A stretch of DNA of 64,000 nucleotides from Acidimicrobiales bacterium. GTDB taxonomy: Bacteria > Actinomycetota > Acidimicrobiia > Acidimicrobiales > CAVXTF01. The notes below the pieces were generated by a model. It was not told the origin of the DNA. It made no database searches and was given only the letters and a program-made list of their open reading frames with translations. Both the position numbers and the translations under genes were made by a program. Location of the stretch: positions 8,267 to 72,266 of the forward strand of contig JBAPRR010000428.1 in the NCBI GenBank assembly GCA_049281195.1, given 5' to 3'. Shown here in pieces: positions 306-22,733 of this stretch (positions are counted from its first letter, which is position 1; the number at the start of each line of letters is the position of its first letter).

Positions 306-1268
306 TTGCAGCGTGCGACGTTGGCTAGTGTCGGCCCGGTGAAGCGGTCCTCCGACCCGAGCGGCGCCGTGGCGCCGGAGGCAAAGAATCACACAGGCGC
401 CGGCATGGGCGTAGGCACTGGCGACGCCACGGCGGGTACTGAGGTCCTCGGGACCCCCACCACAACCACCAGTCGCTGGCCTTCCAAGCGGCGCACGCTC
501 GCCCTCGGAATCTTCGCCCTCCCCGTTCTGCTCGGGGGGTGCCAGCTGCCAGCCTTCTGGGGCTACAAGGGCAGCACCACCCAGGGACACGACGAGTTCC
601 TCATGTACGCCTGGACGGTCATCGCGGGGCTGATCGTGGGTGGGATAGTCACTCTGCTGATCCTGTATCCGATTCTCTTCAACAGGCGTAAGAAGAACAC
701 CGACGTGATGCCCCGTCAGTTCCAGTACCACACCGGGCTCGAGATCTTCTACACGGTGACCCCGATCATCATCGTGCTCATAATCTTCGCCTTCACCGTC
801 ATCTCGGAGAACCACATCGACGCTCTGGCGTCTTCGCCGACGGTGGATGTGAAGGTCACCGCGTTCCAATGGGGCTGGGAGTTCCAGTACCCGACGGAGA
901 ACATCATCGTGCTCGGTCACACCACGCAGGACCCGGACATGGTCCTACCGGCGGGTCAGACCGCCCAGGTGACTCTCGTCTCGCAAGATGTCATTCACGG
1001 TTTCTACGTCCCCGAGTTCAACTTCAGCCGCTACGCGCAGCCCGGAGTGACCAACAAGTTCGACCTGACGGTGAACAAACCCGGGGACTACAGAGGGCAG
1101 TGCACCCAGTTGTGCGGCCTGTACCACGCGTTGATGTTCTTCCATGTGACAGCCCTCCCGCCGGCGCAATTCCAGGCTTGGCTGACCAGGAATTCGAACC
1201 GAAGCTTCATAGGAGAGTCGTCGCACCTCGCCGCGAGCGGGACCGGCGCACTGTCCGGATCGGGGTGA
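306..1268 (+). CDS. ctaC: Cytochrome c oxidase subunit II (CuA subunit), probable lipoprotein
   Basis: CuA motif CTQLCGLYHALM and HGFYVPEF. Two TM helices. Lipobox-like LLGGC after a basic/hydrophobic leader. Directly precedes ctaD. The start is uncertain: TTG at 306 is the longest ORF, and ATG at 405 is an alternative. Confidence 0.9.
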   Translation: MQRATLASVGPVKRSSDPSGAVAPEAKNHTGAGMGVGTGDATAGTEVLGTPTTTTSRWPSKRRTLALGIFALPVLLGGCQLPAFWGYKGSTTQGHDEFLMYAWTVIAGLIVGGIVTLLILYPILFNRRKKNTDVMPRQFQYHTGLEIFYTVTPIIIVLIIFAFTVISENHIDALASSPTVDVKVTAFQWGWEFQYPTENIIVLGHTTQDPDMVLPAGQTAQVTLVSQDVIHGFYVPEFNFSRYAQPGVTNKFDLTVNKPGDYRGQCTQLCGLYHALMFFHVTALPPAQFQAWLTRNSNRSFIGESSHLAASGTGALSGSG

Positions 1269-10938: not shown

Positions 10939-13395
10939 TCAGTCGCCCGCCGGCACCGGGTCCATCTGGCGCAGCGACGCGGGAAGCGGGCGCGCATGAA
11001 GAACCGCCAGGCGCCTCGTGGGCCGTGTCAGTGCGACGTACAGGCGCCTCAGACCCTGACGCGATTCTTCGACAACGGCCGCGGGCTCCACGACGATCAC
11101 GCCGTCGAATTCAAGACCGTTGGCGAGATCCACCGGGAGCAGGTTGACCGGCGCGCCCAGCCCGTCGAGACGGGGGTCCCGGGCCCGCACTCCGGCCGCG
11201 TCGAGAGCCATCGCCAATTCCGCCACCAGCGACGCCGGGGAGAGCACGGCCACGGTTCCCGGCTGGAGCTCCGCCGAAAGCTCGGCGGCCGCCTGAGCGA
11301 CCTCTGCCGCCAGATCCTCGGGGGTCGTCTGCTTGAACGTGGGCAGGAATCCGGTGTGTCTGATCGCAGTAGGCGGTTGGAGGGACGGCGCCGCGGCCTC
11401 GAGCACCTTGGAGGCCACCTGCATCACCTCCGCCGGAGTCCGGTAGCTGACCGACAGCTCGACCACTCGAGGCGGGCGTTGCTTGGGCAGGTGGGCGAGC
11501 ACCACATCCCATCTGTCGGCGGCCCAGGGACCTGTCGCCTGCCCGATGTCCCCCACTACGGTCACAGATCCCGACAGCGACCGTCTGGCCACCATCCTCA
11601 GCTGCATGGGGGAGAGATCCTGAGCCTCGTCGACGACGATGTGCCCGTAGGTCCTGGGGCCTTCTTCTTCGGCTGCTCTCTGGCCATGGGCCTGGGTGAT
11701 GCCGGCGTCGGATGCTCCGGAACGTCGGGCATACCGTGGGCCGAGTACGACACGCGCCTCGTCCACCAACGCCGCGTCCGCGGCCGTGAAAGACACTTCG
11801 ACCAACGACGTGCTGCGCTTGCGGTACAGAAGCCGGTGTTCTTCGGGCGTCAGCAATCCATTGGCGGCGGCCGCCAGAAGCGGCGGGGCTCCGTACATGT
11901 CGTGCAGCAGCTCTTCTGCACTCAACCTCGGCCAGATGCGGTCGAGCGCTTCGGTCAGTTGGGGCACCTTGCGCAGCTGGCGGCCGAAGTCGGCGAAGTC
12001 GAACTCCTGGGTCTCGAATTCTTCCGTGTCGACACCGTCGTCGGCCCCGTCCTCGTTTTCATCAGCGAATACATCAGCCCAGGTGGAGGCACCTTTGTCG
12101 TTGTCGCGAGTGGTGGCCAGAGTCTCCCGGGTCTTCAGGTACTCGTCAGCCAGACGCCTGACCAGAATCTGCTCGACGAACCGTCTTCTGGCGTTGTGGG
12201 TCCCCGGACGCCTGCGCGCGGCCGAAACCACTTCTGCTGACATCTCCGGAGTCAGGTGGAGGACCGCGGAGCCGAACGGGATGTCGAAGGCTTTGCGCAA
12301 CGGTCGCTGGCGGGTCCTTACCGCGCGGGATATCACCCGCTCCATGCGGGCATCACCTTTCAACCTCGCCGTGTCAGGCGGATCGTCCCCACGGACGCTG
12401 AAGCCGTGCACGAGCCCGCTGATCGTGGAGAGCGTCACGCCGCTTTCACCGAGCGAGGGAAGGACCTTCTCGATGTAGCGCAGGAACAGAGGGTTCGGAC
12501 CGATAACGAGAACGCCTTGGCGCTCGAGCGGGAAGCGGTGCGTGTAAAGGAGATAGGCCGCCCGGTGGAGGGCGACAGCGGTCTTTCCGGTCCCCGGGCC
12601 GCCCTGGACCACCAGCACTCCAGCCAGCTCGGAACGGATGATCTCGTCCTGCTCTCCCTGGATGGTGGCGACGATGTCGCGCATCCGTCCCGTTCGAGCT
12701 CCCTCCAGCGCAGCAAGAAGCGCTCCAGGCCCTCCCACCTGCAGGTCGTCCGCAAGCGCCGGTCCTCCGTTCGAAGCCGTTGCGCCGTCAGAACCTGCTG
12801 CCCCACTCTCCGAACCAGCAGCCACGCCGGCGGCACCCAGGCCGTCTGGCACGAATCTCTCGTCTTCGATGTCGGTCACCTGCCGACCGGTGGAGGCGAT
12901 GTGGCGTCTCAAAACGAGACCCATGGGCTCTCGTCCCGTCGCCCTGTAGAAGGGTTCGGCCACGGGAGCGCGCCAGTCGACCACCAGAGGATCGAGGTCG
13001 TCGCCCGAGATGCCCAGGCGCCCGACGTGGAAAGTCTCGATCCGTCTTCCGGCCCCTTCGACCTTCGACCCGGCCTCTTCGACTTTCGACGCACCTTCTT
13101 CGCCCGTCGGCCCGGGTTCTTCCACCCGTCGGGCAGGCGGCACGTCGGGCATGTCGGTGGCTATGCGGTCTATCCGACCGAACAGAAGCGCTTGATCACC
13201 GATTTCGAGCTGCTCCAGGCGCGCCAGGCTCGTCCTTACGATGACGTCCCGCTCTTCTAGGTATTGATGCGTGCCGGTTCCCTGGGCCAAAGCCGCTCGC
13301 AGTCGATCACGCGTATCGTCCCTGAGCTGCTCGAGCCGGTCGTACGCGCGCGACAAGTGGGCTTGCTCCGACTGGAGCTCAGGGTGTTGATCCAC
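10939..13395 (-). CDS. helD: HelD-like UvrD/Rep superfamily 1 helicase (RNA polymerase-associated ATPase type)
   Basis: Walker [25 protein letters not shown]-terminal [22 protein letters not shown] coiled segment typical of HelD. C-terminal helicase motifs HIVVDEAQD and [13 protein letters not shown] at 13395 has GGAGGG 7 nt upstream. The longest ORF starts at ATG 13443. Confidence 0.8.
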
Positions 13396-13443
13396 TCGAG
13401 TCCCTCCTCGGTCACCCGCCCGAGTGACCGAACTAGAGATCAT

Positions 13444-14553
13444 ATGTCGGCGGCCGGCTTCTCCCGGCGGTCAGCTACTTTTCGGGGCGTGCCTGCACCA
13501 GTCTCAGAAAAAGAGTCGGTTTTCCTGCGGGCTTGCAAGGGTGAGCCCACCCCTTTTGTGCCCGTGTGGTTCATGCGCCAGGCGGGCCGATCGCTTCCTG
13601 AATACCGCGAGGCACGCGGGACCGGGAACATCCTCCAGGCACTGGCCGATCCGGTTCTCGCGGCCGAGCTGACCCTGCAGCCGGTGAGGCGCTACGGGGT
13701 GGACGCGGCGATCTTGTTCTCTGACATCGTCGTGCCGGTCGCGGCCATCGGGTTCGGGGTGGAGATTCGAGCCGGCGTGGGCCCGGTGACCGACAAGCCG
13801 TTCAAAGGACCTGACGACCTCGACCGGCTGAGACCTCTCGATGTGGAAAACGATGTCCCCTACGTGGCCGAAGCGGCGCGCCTGGCCTGCGAACAGCTGC
13901 GGCCTCTCGGAGTGCCGCTCATCGGGTTCGCCGGCGCTCCCTTCACTGTGGCGTCGTACCTGGTGGAAGGGGGCCCATCCAGGAACTACGCCAAAACCCT
14001 CACCCTGATGAGGAGCGACCCCGAAACGTGGACTCTGCTGCTCGACAGGCTCGCCGACCATGCAGTGGCGGTACTGCGGGCCCAGGTCGCAGCCGGCGCC
14101 CAGGCGGTCCAGCTCTTCGACAGTTGGGCGGGAGTGCTGTCTGCGTCGGAATACGAGCGGTTCGTGATGCCGGCTTCGAGGAAGGTGCTTGCCGATCTGG
14201 ACGACCTCGGCGTCCCTCGCATCCACTTCGGGGTGGGAACTGGGGAGTTGCTGCATCTGATGGGAAAGGCAGGGGCCGAGGTCGTCGGCGTCGATTGGCG
14301 GGTGCCTCTGGACGAGGCAAAAAAGCGGGTCGGACCCCACAAGGCTCTCCAGGGCAATCTGGATCCCACTATCTGCTTCGCCCCGTGGTCGGTTGTAGAG
14401 GACGCCACCCGGCAGGTACTCCGGCAAGGTGGCGGTCAGGGGCACGTGTTCAATCTTGGTCACGGCGTCCTCCCCGACACCGATCCCGACGTGCTTCACC
14501 GGATCGTCGATCTCGTCCACGGTTGGCAACCGGACGCGGGCCAGAAGCACTAG
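13444..14553 (+). CDS. hemE: Uroporphyrinogen decarboxylase
   Basis: [28 protein letters not shown] signature. An alternative GTG start lies at 13489. Confidence 0.93.
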
Positions 14554-14574
14554 AACCGCGCCACGAGTCTTCCG

Positions 14575-15687
14575 ATGAGCGACACACAACCCCGTGACGA
14601 CCGCCCGACCAGCGGCCCAGATCCAGTTGCTGCCCGTCCGTCCCCGCAGATCGACCCCTCCGAGCAGATCCGCCCTTCTGGGCAGGTCGGCCAATCCGGG
14701 CAGATCGGGGTGGTGCTCATGGCGCACGGGACCCCACCGAGCCTCGAAGAGCTTGCCCCTTTCGTCACAGAGCTACGCAGGGGTCGTCCCCCTGAGCCTC
14801 AGCTCCTGGCCGAGCTCGAGCGTCGATACCTTGCCATCGGCGGGATCTCGCCACTCGCTGAACGCAGTCGCTGGCACGCCGAGGCGCTCGCCGAGGCGCT
14901 CGAAGCCCGCGCTCCCGGTCGTTTCGTCGTCGAGCTGGGCTACAAGTACGCGGCCCCGAGAATCGAAGACGCGGTCAAGGCGCTCGGCCGAAGAGGCGTG
15001 ACCAAAGCCGTCGGGCTTGTTCTCGCACCGCACTACTCGGTGATGAGTATCGGCGACTATGCCAAGCGCGCTTCAGATGCCGGGGCAATGCTTGACCCGC
15101 CGATCGAAGTGTCGACTGTGCATCAGTGGTATCTGGCGCCCGGGTTCGTCCCCCTGGTAGCGGAGCTCGTGAGAAAGGCGATAACCGAGCTTCCCGAAAA
15201 CGAACGGTTCGCTGCAACGGCGGTTTTCACCGCCCACAGCCTTCCGGAGCGAATCCTCGATATCGGAGATCCCTACCGGGATCAGCTACTCGAATCTGCT
15301 GCGGCGATCGCAGCCGCCGCAGACGTGGAACGTTTCATGGCTGCATGGCAATCCGCGGGTAGAAGCGCAGAAAAGTGGCTCGGTCCCGACGTGGTCGACG
15401 TCATCGCCGAACTTCCGGCTACGGGCACTACGGCGGTCGTGATCTGTCCGGTCGGATTCGTATCGGAGCACCTTGAGGTTCTCTTCGACCTCGACGTCGA
15501 GGCTCGCGCTGCTGCCGAGAGAGCCGGGATCCGCTACATGAGGACCGCTTCTTTGGACTACGACCCCCGCCTGTCAGAGGTGCTCGCAGGTGTCATTACC
15601 GACACTGCCAATGCACTGGAAGCCAAAGCACTGGAAACAGGATCCGCAGTGCAACCAGACACCAAGAATCAGCTCGCAGACAAGTGA
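14575..15687 (+). CDS. hemH: Ferrochelatase (probably the coproporphyrin ferrochelatase type)
   Basis: VVLMAHGTPPSLEEL...YLAIGGISPL...FTAHSLP...CPVGFVSEHLEVL motifs. The start is uncertain: ATG 14575 gives a 45-aa repeat-containing leader, and GTG 14710 is an alternative. Confidence 0.88.
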   Translation: MSDTQPRDDRPTSGPDPVAARPSPQIDPSEQIRPSGQVGQSGQIGVVLMAHGTPPSLEELAPFVTELRRGRPPEPQLLAELERRYLAIGGISPLAERSRWHAEALAEALEARAPGRFVVELGYKYAAPRIEDAVKALGRRGVTKAVGLVLAPHYSVMSIGDYAKRASDAGAMLDPPIEVSTVHQWYLAPGFVPLVAELVRKAITELPENERFAATAVFTAHSLPERILDIGDPYRDQLLESAAAIAAAADVERFMAAWQSAGRSAEKWLGPDVVDVIAELPATGTTAVVICPVGFVSEHLEVLFDLDVEARAAAERAGIRYMRTASLDYDPRLSEVLAGVITDTANALEAKALETGSAVQPDTKNQLADK

Positions 15688-17210
15688 GCGTGGCGCAGAA
15701 GAACCACAAGACCGTTGCTGTCATAGGCGCAGGAATATCCGGTTTGTCTGCCGCGTGGGAGCTTGCCAACTCTGCACCGGCAGGCACGCGCATCGTCGTC
15801 ATCGAAGCCACGGATCGCGTCGGAGGACTGCTGCGGTCGATCGATGTCGACGGGCAGACTGTCGATGCGGGCGCCGATGCGTTTCTCGCCAGAAGGCCCG
15901 AGGCGATCGAGCTGTGCCAACAGATCGGGATAAGGGAATCCCTGGTTGCTCCTTCCGCCTCGTCGGCCTGCGTCTGGTCACGAGGAGCGTTGCGCCGGCT
16001 GCCGGACGGTCTGGTGCTCGGCGTGCCGACGAAACTCGGTCCTCTCGCTGAGTCGGGAATCCTTTCTACAAAGGGCCTCGGCAGAGCCGCGCTGGATCTC
16101 GTTCTTCCATCCACCGAGTGGTCAGACGCCGAGGATCACTCGGTCGGCGAACTCGTAGAGGGCCGGTTGGGTGAAGAGGTCAAGGATCTACTAACGGGAC
16201 CACTGGTCGGCGGGATCAATGCCGGGCGCATCGATGAGCTGAGCGCGGAAGCGGTCTTTCCGGCTCTGGCCGAAGCCATACGAAAAGGCGGGAGTCTGAT
16301 GCTCGCGCTACGTCCCGACTCCAAGCCGTCGACAGGACCGACTCCATCCACCGCGCCTCCTCCTGTATTCCTCGCGCCGGGCAAGGGTATGTGGAGCCTT
16401 CCCGATGATCTCCGCACGGCCCTGATTGCCCGAGGTGTCGAAATCTCCACCTCGGAGAAAGTCGAACGACTTAGCCGTACGACAAACCCCGACTCTCACG
16501 ACCAAGTCAGTGCGTCTGACGACATGGACCCTGTGTCGAACGATCAAAGCAGTTTGTCGAGCACTCACCGCGGAGAACGAGGTGACACGTGGAAACTGAC
16601 CACCACATCGAGGACGCTCGAGTGTGACGCGTTGATCATCTCGACTCCGGCGTCTGATGCTTCACGACTGATCAGTGAAGTCGAACCCGAGTTGGCGTCG
16701 ACCTTGTCCGAGATCAAGACCGCATCCGTGGCCCTCGTCACCTTCCTGCTCGCACGCGAGTCACCATCTGCGTTGATGGAAGGAAGTGGCTTCCTAGTTC
16801 CTCAGCTCCATTCCGACCGGATGGTGACGGCGTGCACGTTCATGTCCCAAAAGTGGGCGCATTTGAATCGTGCCGGAATGACACTTATGCGAGCTTCGCT
16901 CGGAAGGTCCGGAGATGAGCGCATCATCCAAATGAGCGACCGACAAGTGGAGAATGCCGCTCAAAAGGAGTTGGAAAGCATGCTCGGCTCGATCGGGAAG
17001 GTCGTGGCGAGCGTCGTAAGCAGGTTCGACAGGTCCTTTCCGCAATACACGGTCGGCCACCTCGACAGAGTCGACACGATCGAGGAATCCACTTCCAAGC
17101 TGCGTCCTCCGGTCGCATTGGCCGGATCGTCATATCGGGGAATCGGGGTTCCAGCCTGCATAGCAAGTGGACGTCGGGCCGCACGCCGAGTTTCGGAGGC
17201 GTTGGCGTGA
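15684..17210 (+). CDS. hemY: Protoporphyrinogen/coproporphyrinogen III oxidase (HemY family flavoprotein)
   Basis: FAD fingerprint VAVIGAGISGLSAAWELA, GGLLRS and a C-terminal GSSYRGIGVPACIASG. GTGA overlap with the hemH stop. Confidence 0.88.
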   Translation: MSVAQKNHKTVAVIGAGISGLSAAWELANSAPAGTRIVVIEATDRVGGLLRSIDVDGQTVDAGADAFLARRPEAIELCQQIGIRESLVAPSASSACVWSRGALRRLPDGLVLGVPTKLGPLAESGILSTKGLGRAALDLVLPSTEWSDAEDHSVGELVEGRLGEEVKDLLTGPLVGGINAGRIDELSAEAVFPALAEAIRKGGSLMLALRPDSKPSTGPTPSTAPPPVFLAPGKGMWSLPDDLRTALIARGVEISTSEKVERLSRTTNPDSHDQVSASDDMDPVSNDQSSLSSTHRGERGDTWKLTTTSRTLECDALIISTPASDASRLISEVEPELASTLSEIKTASVALVTFLLARESPSALMEGSGFLVPQLHSDRMVTACTFMSQKWAHLNRAGMTLMRASLGRSGDERIIQMSDRQVENAAQKELESMLGSIGKVVASVVSRFDRSFPQYTVGHLDRVDTIEESTSKLRPPVALAGSSYRGIGVPACIASGRRAARRVSEALA

Positions 17211-18880
17211 GGGTCCGAAAACGAGTGGTCTCCTTTTCGCGCAACAGCCTCCCCGCCCTGGTTGGTGGCTTCGGGCTCGCTCTTTCGATCCCGCCGTGGG
17301 GATTCTGGATATTGGCGTTTCCCGGAGCGGCGCTGTTGTGGTGGAGGCTCGGCGGAGGACTCAACCCTGACGAGCCGCCGCGCCTTCGCTCCAGGTTGTG
17401 GCTCGGCTGGGTCGCCGGAATAGGGCTCTACGGACCGGGACTTTTCTGGGCAACTTCGTTCAATCTGTATGGCGGGATCATCATGATCCTCATCGAGTCG
17501 TTAGCGCTCGGCCTCGCATGTGCAGCCTGTGGAACGGGACGAGGAAGGCTCCTAGCTCTACCCGGGGCGATGATCTTGGCCGAGTGGTTGCGCGAAATAT
17601 GGCCGTTCGGCGGACTTCCATTGGGGGGAGTTGCTCTTGGCCAGGTGGCCGGACCCCTGGGGGTGGCGGCCCGTATCGGCGGACCCCTGTTGCTTACCGG
17701 TCTTGTGTGGCTGGCCGGAGCGGGGCTCGGATCGCTCGTCATGGGCCTGATCGGGAACCGACGCAGTACCCGCCCAGGACCAAGCGGTACGGCATCGGGC
17801 AACACAGAGGACGCCTGCGCCATAGACGCCGACGGCATAAGCGGACGAATCGACACCGATACGCCTGCAACTGGACACGATCGCAAGAAGTTGACCGCGG
17901 GAGTGATCGGCATCGCTGTGGTCGTCGTGATCTGCGCCTATGGGGTGGTTGCACCGAACGGAGGCCCGTCTCTGAAGACGCTGCACGTCGCTTCGGTGCA
18001 AGGCGGAGGAACCAGAGGCCTTCGAAAGGCTCAGGTCAATCCGCAGATCGTCTACGACGCGCAGTTGGAAGCGACCGCGGAGCTGTCCGAACCGAAGTAC
18101 TCATTCGGAAAGAAATACGGCGATGCACCCGACGACAATCTCGTCGTGTGGCCGGAGGACGTCGTGTCGCTCAACGGTCCTCTCGTCGGGACGACGACCC
18201 AGGGCCAGCTGGCACAGATCGCTCGTAGCGTGGGTGCCAGCCTGCTCGTCGGGGTCACCTACACGGTCACTCCTTCGACATTCAGGAACGAAGTGGTGGC
18301 ATTCGCTCCGTCTGGTTCGATCGTCGGAACCTACGAAAAGGTCCACCGCGTTCCGTTCGGTGAGTATGTGCCTTACCGCGGCTTCTTCAAACATTTCGCC
18401 AACCTTTCCGGCGTTCCGCAAGATGCGATTCCGGGAACACGCCCGGGGTACATCCGGACACCAAGTGCACCGGTGGGTTTGATGGTCTCTTACGAGGTTT
18501 TCTTTGCGGATTCCGGACGATCCGCAACCCGCGCAGGAGCGGAGCTGCTGGTCGTCCCGACGAATACGTCTTCATATTCGACGAGCCAGGTACCCACTCA
18601 GGAGGTGGCTGCAGCGCGTCTCCAGGCGATCGAGGAGGGCCGCGATCTCATTCAGACTGCACCCACCGGATACAGCGCGATCATCAACAACGACGGGCAG
18701 GTTCTACAACGGTCCGTTCTCGGTGCGCGACAGGTTCTCATCGCAAATGTCTCTCTCAGAGATGGCGCAACTATCTACGAAAGAATCGGTGATCTGCCGA
18801 TCTTGTTGCTAGCCCTTTTGTGCCTGATCCTCGGGTGGGCACTCGATCTGGCCAAGCGACGCCCGCGGGCTCAGTCGTAG
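17207..18880 (+). CDS. lnt: Apolipoprotein N-acyltransferase homolog (Lnt; CN-hydrolase domain) with Ser at the nucleophile position
   Basis: Polytopic N-terminal domain plus a CN-hydrolase domain with VVWPEDVV (Glu) and YEKVHRVPFGEYVP (Lys). It reads GLMVSYEVFF where Lnt has xCYE. GTGA overlap with the hemY stop. Confidence 0.8.
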   Translation: MRVRKRVVSFSRNSLPALVGGFGLALSIPPWGFWILAFPGAALLWWRLGGGLNPDEPPRLRSRLWLGWVAGIGLYGPGLFWATSFNLYGGIIMILIESLALGLACAACGTGRGRLLALPGAMILAEWLREIWPFGGLPLGGVALGQVAGPLGVAARIGGPLLLTGLVWLAGAGLGSLVMGLIGNRRSTRPGPSGTASGNTEDACAIDADGISGRIDTDTPATGHDRKKLTAGVIGIAVVVVICAYGVVAPNGGPSLKTLHVASVQGGGTRGLRKAQVNPQIVYDAQLEATAELSEPKYSFGKKYGDAPDDNLVVWPEDVVSLNGPLVGTTTQGQLAQIARSVGASLLVGVTYTVTPSTFRNEVVAFAPSGSIVGTYEKVHRVPFGEYVPYRGFFKHFANLSGVPQDAIPGTRPGYIRTPSAPVGLMVSYEVFFADSGRSATRAGAELLVVPTNTSSYSTSQVPTQEVAAARLQAIEEGRDLIQTAPTGYSAIINNDGQVLQRSVLGARQVLIANVSLRDGATIYERIGDLPILLLALLCLILGWALDLAKRRPRAQS

Positions 18881-19362
18881 TAACCCGAGTGGATATAGAT
18901 GCAGGGAACCCCTTCTGCACGAAACATGTCCCTGTTGCGGGGATCATCTTCGAACGAGAGCTGAAGGTCAAAGCCGTAGTCACGCAAGTCATGCACCGCA
19001 CGTCTCTTGAAGGACGACACCTGTGCGTAATCCCCACGGTCGCGCATGACAAGAAGGTCCCAGCGCAGTCGGTAGTGGTGCAGCCACGCGAGAGTCTGAG
19101 GCATCACCCGAAACGGCCTACCGGTGAGAAGGACTATCCGCAGGGCGGGCTCGAGAAGTCCGAGCAGATGGGCCACGTCCTCGACAAGAGGATCTTCGCC
19201 GCAAGCCTCGAAGAACGCGTTCCAATCCTGCCTTCCGGATTCGATGAAATGCTGGCGCCCGGCGGCATCGGACAGAACCCCGTCGATGTCGAAGACGACC
19301 GTGCGTCCCGGCTCGACGGGATCGGTGCGCCAGTGCCAGTTGGGGTGAATTTGATCGAACAT
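18871..19362 (-). CDS. HAD-superfamily phosphatase
   Basis: Motif I VVFDIDGVLSD, motif II LLTGR, Lys motif SFKRRA, acidic motif SFEDDPRN. ATG at 19362; the longest ORF extends to 19479. Confidence 0.65.
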   Translation of the reverse strand: MFDQIHPNWHWRTDPVEPGRTVVFDIDGVLSDAAGRQHFIESGRQDWNAFFEACGEDPLVEDVAHLLGLLEPALRIVLLTGRPFRVMPQTLAWLHHYRLRWDLLVMRDRGDYAQVSSFKRRAVHDLRDYGFDLQLSFEDDPRNRDMFRAEGVPCIYIHSGYYD

Positions 19363-19601
19363 ACCGCTACGGGAGTCCGACTCAGACCGGGCGATGACGC
19401 GATCCGATCCACCACGTCTCGAGTCTCCCGTCACATTCCGCAGCGTAGGTCGAGCAGACCGCAGCCGAGAGTGAGGCAATTGCCCGGACTATCAACCGAC
19501 ACTGTCGCTTTCGAGGCGACACCCATTCTGTTTTTGCATTCGGGCCTGATCACCTGTGTGGAAGCGGGTAAGGGGCTCGACAATGGCAGGATTGAGGGTG
19601 C

Positions 19602-22600
19602 ATGTCTGACCTGAGCCTCGCTGCCCGGGGGGTCGTTGGCATTTCGGGCACAGAAGAGCTCGAAGAGGTACTGCTGGTACCCGAAAGCCAGACCGATCCC
19701 CGAACGATCGAAGCAGAGATCGGGATAGGCCGCAGGGTGGTAGTTCTCGCCAATCTGGGCCTCGCTCCTGACGCCTCTCCGGTCTCATTACAAGCCGGGT
19801 CAGTCGTTGCCGATGCCCTCGACTCCTGGCAGGGGCCGGGAACGGTTGTTATCGCGGGGAACTTTCTGGATCTCCGGCGATGCCAGGACGCCGACAGCGG
19901 CGTTACTGCGCAACCCGATGCCGACGCTTCCACGACCAAACAGGCCCTCGACACTCACTCGCGACTCAGCAAGTCGCTTCGCGACTTCGCGTCAGGGCCT
20001 GAGAGGCGTCTGATCTGCCTGCCCGGGAGCACCGACTCAGCGATACAGACGGACCCGCAAGTGAGGGCGGCCATCGAGAAGCTCGGCGCCAACGTCGCAC
20101 CGGCAGTCGACCTCGTGTGCGAAACCACGGCAGGGGCGAAACGGGTGAGGGTGCTCCCCGGTCCTGTGTCGGGAGCAAAGGGTGATGATTTTGCGACTTC
20201 GCCGGAGCCCGAGCCCGAAGTCGGTTGGCAAGGCGGGATGGATCGCCTGGCGGACGCCTCGGCGCTCGAACGTCTGGTCAAGTCACGAACCGTCTACCGA
20301 TGGCTGAGCGGTCACGCGTGGCTGTTCGCAATTCCGTTCCTGATTGTCCTCGTTCTGAGCCTGCCCGCGACGTCGTGGGTCTTCAGCCACGTGCTACCGA
20401 CACATCCGGGGCCCGTTAAGGCCCTACACCGCGTGCGCGACACGCGCCTCGGCGCCAGGCTGCTGGTAGCTGTTCTGGTAGCGATCGTCGAGATCGCGGC
20501 GGCCGGCATAGTCCTGCTCTTCGTTGGCAGGAGACGCTGGTCACGCGTCGGTGGAGAACGCCTGGAGCGGGTGTTCGGGTTCGACGAATTCCATTCAGGG
20601 GCCACGGGCAACGACGAAGCTCGCGACACTGCGACAGCCCTTGTCTCTGCCGGATATGCCGGTGTCGTATCGGGCGCCACGCTTCAGGCGGAACTGACTC
20701 ACTTGGGAACCGGGTTCTTCGCATGCCCCGGGACCGCCGGTGAGGTGGTCGAGGAGTATCCCGGCCGGATGGGCCTCCCTCCTGTTTTCCTCGCGCACCG
20801 ACAGGTCGCCTGGGTGGAGCTCGAAACGGGAGCCGATCTTCACGCCCGACTCCTTTTGGCTCGATCCGACATCCCGGCGGCGACACTCCTCGAGCGCATC
20901 GCTGCACGGCATCATGCGGAACACGAGACAACCCCGGTCGTGGTCGCTGCCCACCCGAGCGGCGGATCGTGGCCACCGGCCCCCGACCTCTCCTCGACCA
21001 GAAGGCGCTCGCGCAGAGCACGTCGACTTGCGTCAGTTTCCATTGCGATCGCCGGTCTGCTCGACCTCATCACTTCGGTAACCCCTCCACTTAGAAGTCA
21101 CTTGCACCTGGTGAGGCAGGTACTTCCTCTTGGTGCGACCCAGGCCGCGGGTGCCCTGGTGGCACTTGCGGGGCTTGGCCTTCTTGCTCTGGCAAGAGGG
21201 GTCCGGCGCGGACAGCACAGGGCTTGGGCTATTTCCGTAGGAGTCCTCGCGAGCACCCTCGTGCTTCACATTGCACGAGGAGCGGACATAACCGCATGGG
21301 TCGTCTCAGCGGTCGTTCTGGCCATACTTCTGGTGTTCCGCCAGGAGTTTCAAGGTGCTTCCGACCGTCCGTCCCTACGGTCGGCGATCATCGCTCTGGT
21401 CGGAGGAGTCGTAGGTATCACCATCGTCGCGACGATCGCGGCTCAAATTGCGATGCTTCTGCATCACGACCGTCGCGTGAGTTTCTGGACGACCGGCGAA
21501 GCCGTAGCGGAGCGCTTGGTGGGCGTTCAGACGATTGTGTTGCCGAAAGGCCTGAACGGCTTCCTTGCACCAAGCCTGGCCACGATCGGGGTGAGCCTCG
21601 CCGCCATAGCCCTGTGGCTGGCTACGCGGCCTGTCGTAGACAGACACACCACTGGGCGATCCGCAGAGGCCAGAGCGCGCGACATCGTCCGGCGCCACGG
21701 AGCCGGCACGCTCGACTATTTCGCCTTACGGAGCGACAAGAAGCGCTTCTTTCATCGCGACAGCGTGGTGGCTTACGCCATCTACGGAGGTGTTTGCCTG
21801 GTCTCTCCTGACCCGATAGGTCCTCTGACTGAGCGGGCACAGACATGGGCCGCGTTCCGGAGATTCGCCGACAGTCGTGGATGGGTGCTCGCGATCATGG
21901 GTGCTTCGGAAGAGTGGCTGCCGATCTACAGGGCGACCGGCATGCACGAGATCTATATCGGCGATGAGGCGGTCGTAGACGTCCAGAAGTTCTCGCTCGC
22001 CGGGGGACACATGAAGGGACTCCGGCAGGCCGCGAACCGCATCGCCAAGTACGGCTACACGGCAACATTCCACGATCCTGCGACCCTCGACCAGACAACC
22101 GGAGCAAAGCTCGCAACTCTGATGGCGCAGAGCCGCCGCGGCGAGATGGAGCGCGGTTTCTCCATGACGCTCGGCCGCATATTCGATCCCAGAGACGAGG
22201 GGCTCGTTCTGTGCGCGGTGTGGGCACCGGACGGGACTCCTGCGGCGATGTGCCAGTTCGTCCGGGCATCGGGAATCGGCGGCTACTCACTGGACCTGAT
22301 GAGGCGCGATCGCGGTGAGCACCCGAACGGCCTTGTCGACTTCGCACTCGTTTCGACGATTGAGTACCTGCGCGAGAAGGGAGCGCGCGGGCTCAGTCTC
22401 AACTTCGCCGCGATGCGCTCGATCCTCGATGGGGAACGCGGCGACGGCGTGGCCCAGCGAGTCGAACGCTGGGCACTCAAGAAGATGTCCTCGTTTCTCC
22501 AGATCGAGACCCTTTGGCGCTTCAACTCGAAGTACGGACCGTCGTGGATTCCCCGCTATATCGTCTACGACACTCCGGAGCACCTGGTACCCGCAGTGCT

Positions 22601-22733
22601 TGCCATTCTTCGGGCCGAGTCGCTGTGGGAGGTGCCGGTCATCGGCAAGATGCTCGGCGCAGCGGAGCGCAGGATTCACACCGATCCGGAGGACCCCGTC
22701 TCACAAAGGATCGGAACAGAAGATCTCGCGTAG
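19602..22733 (+). CDS. MprF-like aminoacyl-phosphatidylglycerol synthase/flippase family protein with an extra N-terminal region
   Basis: The C-terminal about 330 aa matches the DUF2156/LPG-synthase C domain (RHGAGTLDYFALRSDKKRFF...YSLDLMRR...KGARGLSLNFA...RFNSKYGPSW), preceded by multiple TM helices. The N-terminal about 440 aa is additional. Confidence 0.75.
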   Translation: MSDLSLAARGVVGISGTEELEEVLLVPESQTDPRTIEAEIGIGRRVVVLANLGLAPDASPVSLQAGSVVADALDSWQGPGTVVIAGNFLDLRRCQDADSGVTAQPDADASTTKQALDTHSRLSKSLRDFASGPERRLICLPGSTDSAIQTDPQVRAAIEKLGANVAPAVDLVCETTAGAKRVRVLPGPVSGAKGDDFATSPEPEPEVGWQGGMDRLADASALERLVKSRTVYRWLSGHAWLFAIPFLIVLVLSLPATSWVFSHVLPTHPGPVKALHRVRDTRLGARLLVAVLVAIVEIAAAGIVLLFVGRRRWSRVGGERLERVFGFDEFHSGATGNDEARDTATALVSAGYAGVVSGATLQAELTHLGTGFFACPGTAGEVVEEYPGRMGLPPVFLAHRQVAWVELETGADLHARLLLARSDIPAATLLERIAARHHAEHETTPVVVAAHPSGGSWPPAPDLSSTRRRSRRARRLASVSIAIAGLLDLITSVTPPLRSHLHLVRQVLPLGATQAAGALVALAGLGLLALARGVRRGQHRAWAISVGVLASTLVLHIARGADITAWVVSAVVLAILLVFRQEFQGASDRPSLRSAIIALVGGVVGITIVATIAAQIAMLLHHDRRVSFWTTGEAVAERLVGVQTIVLPKGLNGFLAPSLATIGVSLAAIALWLATRPVVDRHTTGRSAEARARDIVRRHGAGTLDYFALRSDKKRFFHRDSVVAYAIYGGVCLVSPDPIGPLTERAQTWAAFRRFADSRGWVLAIMGASEEWLPIYRATGMHEIYIGDEAVVDVQKFSLAGGHMKGLRQAANRIAKYGYTATFHDPATLDQTTGAKLATLMAQSRRGEMERGFSMTLGRIFDPRDEGLVLCAVWAPDGTPAAMCQFVRASGIGGYSLDLMRRDRGEHPNGLVDFALVSTIEYLREKGARGLSLNFAAMRSILDGERGDGVAQRVERWALKKMSSFLQIETLWRFNSKYGPSWIPRYIVYDTPEHLVPAVLAILRAESLWEVPVIGKMLGAAERRIHTDPEDPVSQRIGTEDLA

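Follow-up and report, generated by a model that had tools for sequence, protein, structure and literature searches.

The apolipoprotein N-acyltransferase (Lnt) and the nitrilase superfamily at large are defined by a cysteine nucleophile, and the C387S mutant of Escherichia coli Lnt is in standard use as a "dead" control. This engineered protein (Protein Data Bank [PDB] codes 5vrh and 8b0m) carries a single change in a scaffold adapted to Cys. It self-acylates, i.e., it carries out the first half-reaction to yield a stable oxyester (PMC6828757; PMC5500888), and it has been termed a "low activity" form in a structural study (PMC10313180). A natural counterpart is found in the mycobacterial BCG_2279c/Rv2262c-Rv2261c, a full-length Lnt homolog with Ser at the C387 position that occurs as an extra paralog beside a functional Cys-type Lnt and was judged probably inactive, four lipoproteins not being N-acylated in the BCG lnt mutant (PMC3850990). 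Beyond BCG_2279c, we recovered nothing in the searchable literature on natural Ser-type Lnts or on Lnt in the Acidimicrobiia. The Cys-type actinobacterial Lnts (Mycobacterium smegmatis MSMEG_3860, the M. tuberculosis Lnt-Ppm1 protein Rv2051c, and Streptomyces Lnt1 and Lnt2) belong to monoderm hosts in which Lnt is nonessential; they retain the Cys, and in many cases they are fused to Ppm1 or encoded next to it. Here we analyze a member of the same family and phylum, the lnt homolog at positions 17207 to 18880 of a 64,000-nucleotide stretch of DNA (the window) from an Acidimicrobiales bacterium (GenBank assembly GCA_049281195.1; contig JBAPRR010000428.1, positions 8,267 to 72,266). Unlike the Cys-type genes, it follows hemY, and unlike BCG_2279c, it is a sole copy. 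Its nucleophile position is occupied by Ser, and the sequence comparisons given below are best explained if the gene is the organism's single apolipoprotein N-acyltransferase ortholog in a natural form with a Ser nucleophile.

The 557-amino-acid (aa) product displays the Lnt architecture, namely, a polytopic N-terminal membrane domain, an extracytoplasmic CN-hydrolase domain, and a final transmembrane helix, in both Pfam searches and the AlphaFold2 model. Pfam profiles recovered LNT_N (PF20154; residues 21 to 172, 65.6 bits) and CN_hydrolase (PF00795; residues 331 to 519, 58.7 bits), and the NCBIfam lnt equivalog TIGR00546 matched at 169.5 bits, above its curated cutoff of 132.9. With the AlphaFold2 model, which was built from 72 homologs (mean predicted local distance difference test [pLDDT] score of 86.5; predicted template modeling [pTM] score of 0.89), the best 24 Foldseek matches in the PDB were all Lnt structures, with template modeling (TM) scores of 0.70 to 0.81. 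A phmmer search of all PDB chains recovered Lnt entries at E = 1e-15 to 1e-17, the non-Lnt matches being two marginal soluble nitrilase-family enzymes (E = 5.5e-4 and 7.8e-3). Taken together, the profile matches and the model confirm that the open reading frame (ORF) encodes a full-length Lnt. With the E. coli and Pseudomonas aeruginosa enzymes (TIGR00546; PDB codes 5n6h, 5n6m, and 8b0k-p), it shares this two-domain architecture with a C-terminal transmembrane helix; the Glu, Lys, second Glu, Asn, and the Tyr-Glu that follows the nucleophile; and a genome that also encodes Lgt and LspA. It differs from them in having a Ser nucleophile (with an oxyester intermediate to be expected) and in carrying Glu and Tyr where E. 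coli Lnt has His425 and F416, respectively; in overall sequence (about 21% identity); and in the placement of its gene at the end of a heme operon.

The equivalence of the Ser to the canonical nucleophile was recovered by two alignments. In the phmmer search, S428 falls on residue 387 of E. coli Lnt, and the top PDB match is the C387S mutant itself (5vrh; ...MVSYEVFF against ...AISYEIIL). A MAFFT alignment with E. coli K-12 lnt again puts S428 in the C387 column, with E317, K378, E386, Y429, E430, and N453 aligned to E. coli E267, K335, E343, Y388, E389, and N412, respectively. The residues associated with Lnt function are in place around a column filled by Ser instead of Cys, and the superfamily Glu-Lys-Cys triad is represented by Glu-Lys-Ser, which is identical to the triad of the engineered mutant. 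A first-pass annotation of the window, made from the letters alone, had proposed this replacement, citing the ORF at 17207 to 18880, the TCT codon at 18488 to 18490 in the motif GLMVSYEVFF, the Glu in VVWPEDVV, and the triad Lys; direct reading of the sequence and the alignments bear it out on every point. It had also allowed that a different Cys might turn out to occupy the nucleophile position. None of the five cysteines of the product (residues 105, 108, 204, 243, and 539) is located in the catalytic domain (about residues 255 to 520), which rules out another Cys as the nucleophile. Across the alignments of Ser-type proteins, little or no variation is seen at the positions corresponding to E. 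coli W265, E267, K335, F341, E343, P346, and E389, and little at those of G342 and N412; the S411 position is always Thr or Ser, and the Tyr-Glu that follows the nucleophile is either unchanged or conservatively replaced. Apart from the nucleophile, the catalytic residues show the same degree of conservation in the two types of Lnt, Ser and Cys.

We then determined the phyletic spread of the Ser. It is present in all 121 aligned sequences, which comprise the query and its 120 closest homologs (49 to 100% identity; the closest are labeled "Acidimicrobiales bacterium" in the database), and Glu317 and Lys378 are likewise invariant in these. When 1.84 billion cluster representatives were searched exhaustively with HMMER, the nearest 50%-identity representatives that cover the site (n = 142) comprised 134 with Ser, 4 with Cys, and 4 with other residues; the few representatives with odd residues in the catalytic columns include fragments. 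Sampling by genome gave a comparable picture: Ser in 29 and Cys in 1 of 30 genomes of the order, one per family, with no other residue; Ser in 12 of 12 additional genomes of the order; and, for the remaining orders of the class, Ser in 6 genomes and Cys in 1 (n = 7). Two complete single-contig genomes of the sample, G130 and G319, are of the Ser type. Cys is the only recurrent alternative to Ser. The sole Cys-bearing member among the sampled genomes of the order (locus L023) uses the codon TGC, has hemY upstream as do its relatives, and in the maximum-likelihood tree (see below) lies inside the Ser clade beside locus L020. The Ser codons include TCC, TCG, TCT, and TCA, and AGC is used by two members of the order (L020 and L025); this full synonymous spread shows the Ser state to be old. 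Passage between TCN and AGC takes two substitutions, with TGC (Cys) among the possible single-step intermediates. Ser and Cys hence appear to be the sole residues accepted at this position and to have interchanged there, and the comparisons establish, at the level of sequence, that Ser is fixed across the Acidimicrobiia under purifying selection.

This distribution answers two doubts that the first-pass annotation had raised, viz., whether Ser is lineage-wide, as the above counts indicate, or a strain-specific deviation from Cys-bearing relatives, when in fact the relatives almost all have Ser. It also bears on the reading in which the codon is a sequencing or assembly error, or strain noise, for a true TGT. 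Although TCT is one base away from TGT and the host genome is a metagenome-assembled genome in 457 contigs, Ser recurs in all 120 closest homologs from independent assemblies and in 39 of 40 genomes of the order, with five Ser codons in use, and conservation of this kind across relatives makes a base-call error in the TCT codon very unlikely; we regard this reading as effectively refuted.

To place the Acidimicrobiales proteins among other Lnts, we used 80 Lnt loci taken from a sample of 301 Actinomycetota genomes. Outside the Acidimicrobiia, the nucleophile in these loci is Cys, with three exceptions. (i) In f45, a large uncultured family of another Actinomycetota class (loci L104 to L113), Ser is found in 11 of 11 genomes and in 118 of 120 database homologs, with the motif ISFEGDFG. 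(ii) Family f88 is mixed, with Ser in 2 of 6 genomes; Ser-type copies (L071 and L117; VVSWEVTFA) stand against Cys-type ones (L070 and L114 to L116). (iii) The second paralog of the Mycobacteriaceae (e.g., that of Mycolicibacterium rutilum) has SFE in 116 of 120 homologs and uses AGC codons; we take it, without a direct alignment to BCG_2279c, to be of the BCG_2279c/Rv2262c-Rv2261c type. In the maximum-likelihood tree, the Acidimicrobiales form one clade (Shimodaira-Hasegawa-like approximate likelihood ratio test [SH-aLRT] support of 100), which joins the sequences of other Acidimicrobiia and the Ser sequences of f88 (SH-aLRT, 84), and the mycobacterial Ser paralogs fall within a Cys-bearing Lnt2-like clade (SH-aLRT, 100). 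The grouping of the f88 Ser copies with the Acidimicrobiia may reflect horizontal transfer or paralogy. In the approximately unbiased (AU) test, a single clade of all nonmycobacterial Ser types was not rejected (P = 0.33), whereas a single clade of all Ser types was rejected (P = 3.7e-6). By both tree and test, the Acidimicrobiales Ser-type Lnt is not a member of the mycobacterial clade that holds the BCG_2279c type. The tree topology, the AU rejection, and the use of AGC against mostly TCN codons together indicate that Cys was replaced by Ser on at least two independent occasions.

A TIGR00546 search of the contigs recovered a single Lnt, the other match being a soluble 277-aa Nit-type CN hydrolase with the canonical Cys, and a second, Cys-type Lnt, which the first-pass annotation had thought worth looking for, was not found across the 93%-complete genome. 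Both upstream enzymes of the pathway are encoded, namely, Lgt (PF01790, 125.7 bits) and LspA (TIGR00077, above cutoff). Of the options that the annotation had entertained, an inactive paralog can be set aside, the gene being the only Lnt homolog in the genome and a syntenic, class-wide ortholog; a Ser-nucleophile variant is the best supported, given that Ser is found throughout the lineage, that the other catalytic residues do not vary, and that Cys alone recurs as an alternative; and a changed acceptor or function is less likely. The window additionally encodes a cytochrome oxidase subunit II homolog, CtaC (positions 306 to 1268, forward strand), with a lipobox (LLGGC) after a signal-like segment. 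The ctaC gene lies in one respiratory and heme neighborhood with lnt, 16 kb upstream of it, and its product is likely to be a lipoprotein substrate. Another Acidimicrobiales genome, G021, has a Ser-type Lnt together with a full-length Cys-type Lnt2-like paralog (L124; G021:C18, 847 to 2436, forward strand; PLICFEETFP).

Several positions close to the nucleophile vary with lineage. His425 of E. coli Lnt adjoins Cys387 and possibly raises its nucleophilicity (PMC5500888). The corresponding column has Gln or Glu across the Acidimicrobiales; Leu or Phe in other Acidimicrobiia, f88, and the mycobacterial Ser types; His in f45; and His or Gln in Cys types. Most Ser types carry Tyr, or else Trp, in the F416 column, and the D413 column has Asn or Asp in 40 of 45 Cys-type sequences (about 90%) versus 1 of 43 Ser types. 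In the membrane domain, residues 139 and 137 of the product (P0001) occupy the positions of E. coli W148 and F146, and the W148 position is Leu, Met, Ile, or Val throughout the Acidimicrobiales and Trp in nearly all other Actinomycetota Lnts, including Ser types of other clades.

We predict, with a probability of roughly 0.6, that the lnt product is catalytically active and transfers acyl groups by way of an oxyester intermediate. In the proposed cycle, E317 would activate S428 for attack on a membrane phospholipid at its sn-1 ester, with K378, E386, and the backbone of the nucleophile elbow stabilizing the oxyanion, and the covalent intermediate would be an O-acyl enzyme, an oxyester rather than the usual thioester. 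From there, the acyl chain would go to an amine; the most probable acceptors are the diacylglyceryl-Cys lipoproteins generated by Lgt and LspA, at their N-terminal alpha-amino group. Both productive turnover of the oxyester and lipoproteins as the acceptor are inferred. Four observations weigh against this prediction. The E. coli C387S protein fails to complete N-acyl transfer in most assays (PMC5500888; PMC6828757); BCG_2279c, the one Ser-type homolog to have been examined genetically, although of a different clade, did not N-acylate the four lipoproteins in the lnt-deletion strain (PMC3850990); an Lnt homolog is absent in 4 of 41 genomes of the order (G015, G017, G024, and G039), indicating that Lnt is dispensable in part of it; and covariation of the columns of E. 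coli 413, 416, and 425 with the nucleophile is not significant, with only three or four independent contrasts, so that the differences in these columns are leads for mutagenesis and not evidence. Two of the four Lnt-less genomes reach 99% completeness at a size of about 2 Mb. As for the mutant, it is the second step, aminolysis, that constitutes the barrier, and an adapted pocket could plausibly lower it. The mutant is stalled after self-acylation or of low activity with a single change in its scaffold, whereas the natural clade has held Ser through the whole history of the class with changes in the adjoining residues.

The same observations can be accommodated if the fold and the acyl-enzyme chemistry are retained but the acyl group goes elsewhere, i.e., to a glycolipid, lipoglycan, or lysolipid, or if the protein is a slow phospholipase or transacylase. 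The inability of BCG_2279c to stand in for a Cys-type Lnt on four lipoproteins, the poor suitability of an oxyester for aminolysis in the E. coli scaffold, and pocket residues at E. coli positions 413, 416, and 425 that are unlike those of Cys types, along with the change at the W148 position in the order, would all fit such a shift in acceptor. Yet, the protein is the only Lnt homolog in a genome with Lgt, LspA, and lipobox proteins; it is the syntenic ortholog of Cys-bearing copies such as L023; and it keeps the equivalents of E343, Y388, and E389, which are needed for Lnt function. We consider an altered acceptor the main rival reading, unlikely on this balance, albeit far from implausible. 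In mycobacteria, the Lnt/Ppm2 domain has been proposed as an anchor or activator of Ppm1, and one might likewise picture a catalytically dead or trapped protein with a structural role, either as the anchor or activator of a partner or as a stably O-acylated membrane protein. The stable oxyester of E. coli C387S, its service as an inactive control, and the dispensability of Lnt in part of the order are compatible with such a role. However, the Glu, Lys, second Glu, Asn, and the nucleophile position would then not be expected to stay invariant across the class, a restriction of the nucleophile to Ser or Cys would be surprising, and there is no adjacent or fused partner, the neighbors being hemY and a convergent HAD phosphatase. 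Retention of the catalytic residues and limitation of the nucleophile to Ser or Cys make a pseudoenzyme improbable.

We also put forward a broader and more tentative proposal, which we regard as somewhat less probable than not. The Acidimicrobiia, perhaps along with f45 and part of f88, might constitute the first natural, fully functional Ser-nucleophile branch of the nitrilase superfamily. Its members would be Glu-Lys-Ser(-Glu) enzymes that N-acylate lipoproteins via an oxyester, with a pocket retuned by Glu or Gln in place of His425 and by Tyr in place of F416 and with Ser and Cys freely exchangeable over evolution.

In a family for which Cys is the defining nucleophile, a class-wide clade with thousands of members has Ser as the conserved state of its only Lnt. 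Either the Lnt scaffold can be tuned for acyl transfer via an oxyester, or the Lnt fold serves some other purpose in Actinomycetota that are abundant in soils and the sea. There are practical bearings as well: annotation pipelines call Ser types "apolipoprotein N-acyltransferase" without qualification; thiol-directed inhibitors and assays (e.g., MTSES) would presumably be ineffective on them; and the di- versus triacyl state of lipoproteins shapes their recognition by innate immune receptors. The natural Ser/Cys pairs recovered here offer ready material for mutational tests.

The features of the locus are collected in Table 1. The loop between the membrane helices listed there is without consensus in the 72-sequence alignment.

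Table 1. Positions in the window of the Ser-type lnt gene, its domains and active-site residues, and the adjoining genes
Feature	Position	Strand	Basis or remark
lnt homolog, Ser-type, 557 aa (P0001)	17207..18880	+	Pfam, TIGR00546, AlphaFold2, Foldseek
LNT_N membrane domain, residues 21-172	17267..17722	+	PF20154; AlphaFold2 helices over residues 2-188
Variable low-confidence loop between membrane helices, about residues 185-223	17759..17875	+	pLDDT 50-58 (blocks 190-220)
CN-hydrolase (nitrilase-like) catalytic domain, about residues 255-520, Cys-free	17969..18766	+	PF00795; PDB alignment over residues 311-551
C-terminal transmembrane helix, residues 530-550	18794..18856	+	AlphaFold2 helix; hydrophobic segment 521-552
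E317 (GAG), E. coli E267, general base	18155..18157	+	VVWPEDVV; invariant across all aligned homologs
K378 (AAG), E. coli K335	18338..18340	+	In YEKVHRVPFGEYVP; invariant
E386 (GAG), E. coli E343	18362..18364	+	Invariant in Ser types and Cys types alike
S428 (TCT), nucleophile position, E. coli C387	18488..18490	+	phmmer, MAFFT; motif GLMVSYEVFF
E466 (GAG), E. coli His425 position	18602..18604	+	Invariant in 72 close homologs
hemE (uroporphyrinogen decarboxylase)	13264..14553	+	TIGR01464, 388.6 bits; domain from residue 84-87
hemH (ferrochelatase)	14575..15687	+	PF00762, 238 bits
hemY (protoporphyrinogen/coproporphyrinogen oxidase family)	15684..17210	+	TIGR00562, 235.9 bits
GTGA overlap (lnt GTG, 17207-17209; hemY stop TGA, 17208-17210)	17207..17210	+	Direct sequence reading
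Convergent HAD_PNKP-like phosphatase gene	18871..19479	-	PF25109, 40 bits; 10-nt overlap with lnt 3' end

The placement of lnt as the fourth gene after hemE-hemH-hemY, with its start overlapping the hemY stop, had been noted in the initial reading of the window; Pfam and NCBIfam searches identify the genes as proposed, and the arrangement is conserved in relatives. A GGAGG stands at 17195 to 17199, 7 nt upstream of the lnt GTG. Contigs of relatives with 52 to 65% identity repeat the order hemE-hemH-hemY-lnt and continue, as here, with the convergent HAD_PNKP-like gene and then an MprF-like one, and an RTGA overlap is found in 10 loci (L004, which is the present locus, L005 to L008, L014, and L099 to L102). 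Members of the order that are less closely related still have hemY upstream of lnt, but at a distance, and hemY was not seen beside lnt in any of the loci fetched, with short flanks only, from outside the order. A promoter and terminator scan of positions 13000 to 19800 gave no above-chance signal between hemY and lnt. The conserved operon architecture argues for cotranscription of lnt with hemE-hemH-hemY, and lnt is probably translationally coupled to hemY. We interpret the linkage as one of cotranscription in a respiratory, heme, and envelope neighborhood rather than as a heme function: ChdC/HemQ is encoded on a separate contig (C57), so lnt is not a substitute for a missing heme enzyme, and neither the synteny nor the ChdC search lent support to a functional link between lnt and heme.

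Two minor observations concern the flanking genes. The longest hemE ORF opens at the TTG at 13264, but the true start is probably downstream, at an ATG near 13444, since the URO-D domain begins only at about residue 84 and the relatives are 322 to 357 aa in length. On the other side of lnt, the MprF/LysX-like protein of the window (19602 to 22733, forward strand; 1,043 aa) combines an LPG_synthase_C domain and a lysyl-tRNA synthetase transmembrane region with a long N-terminal extension.

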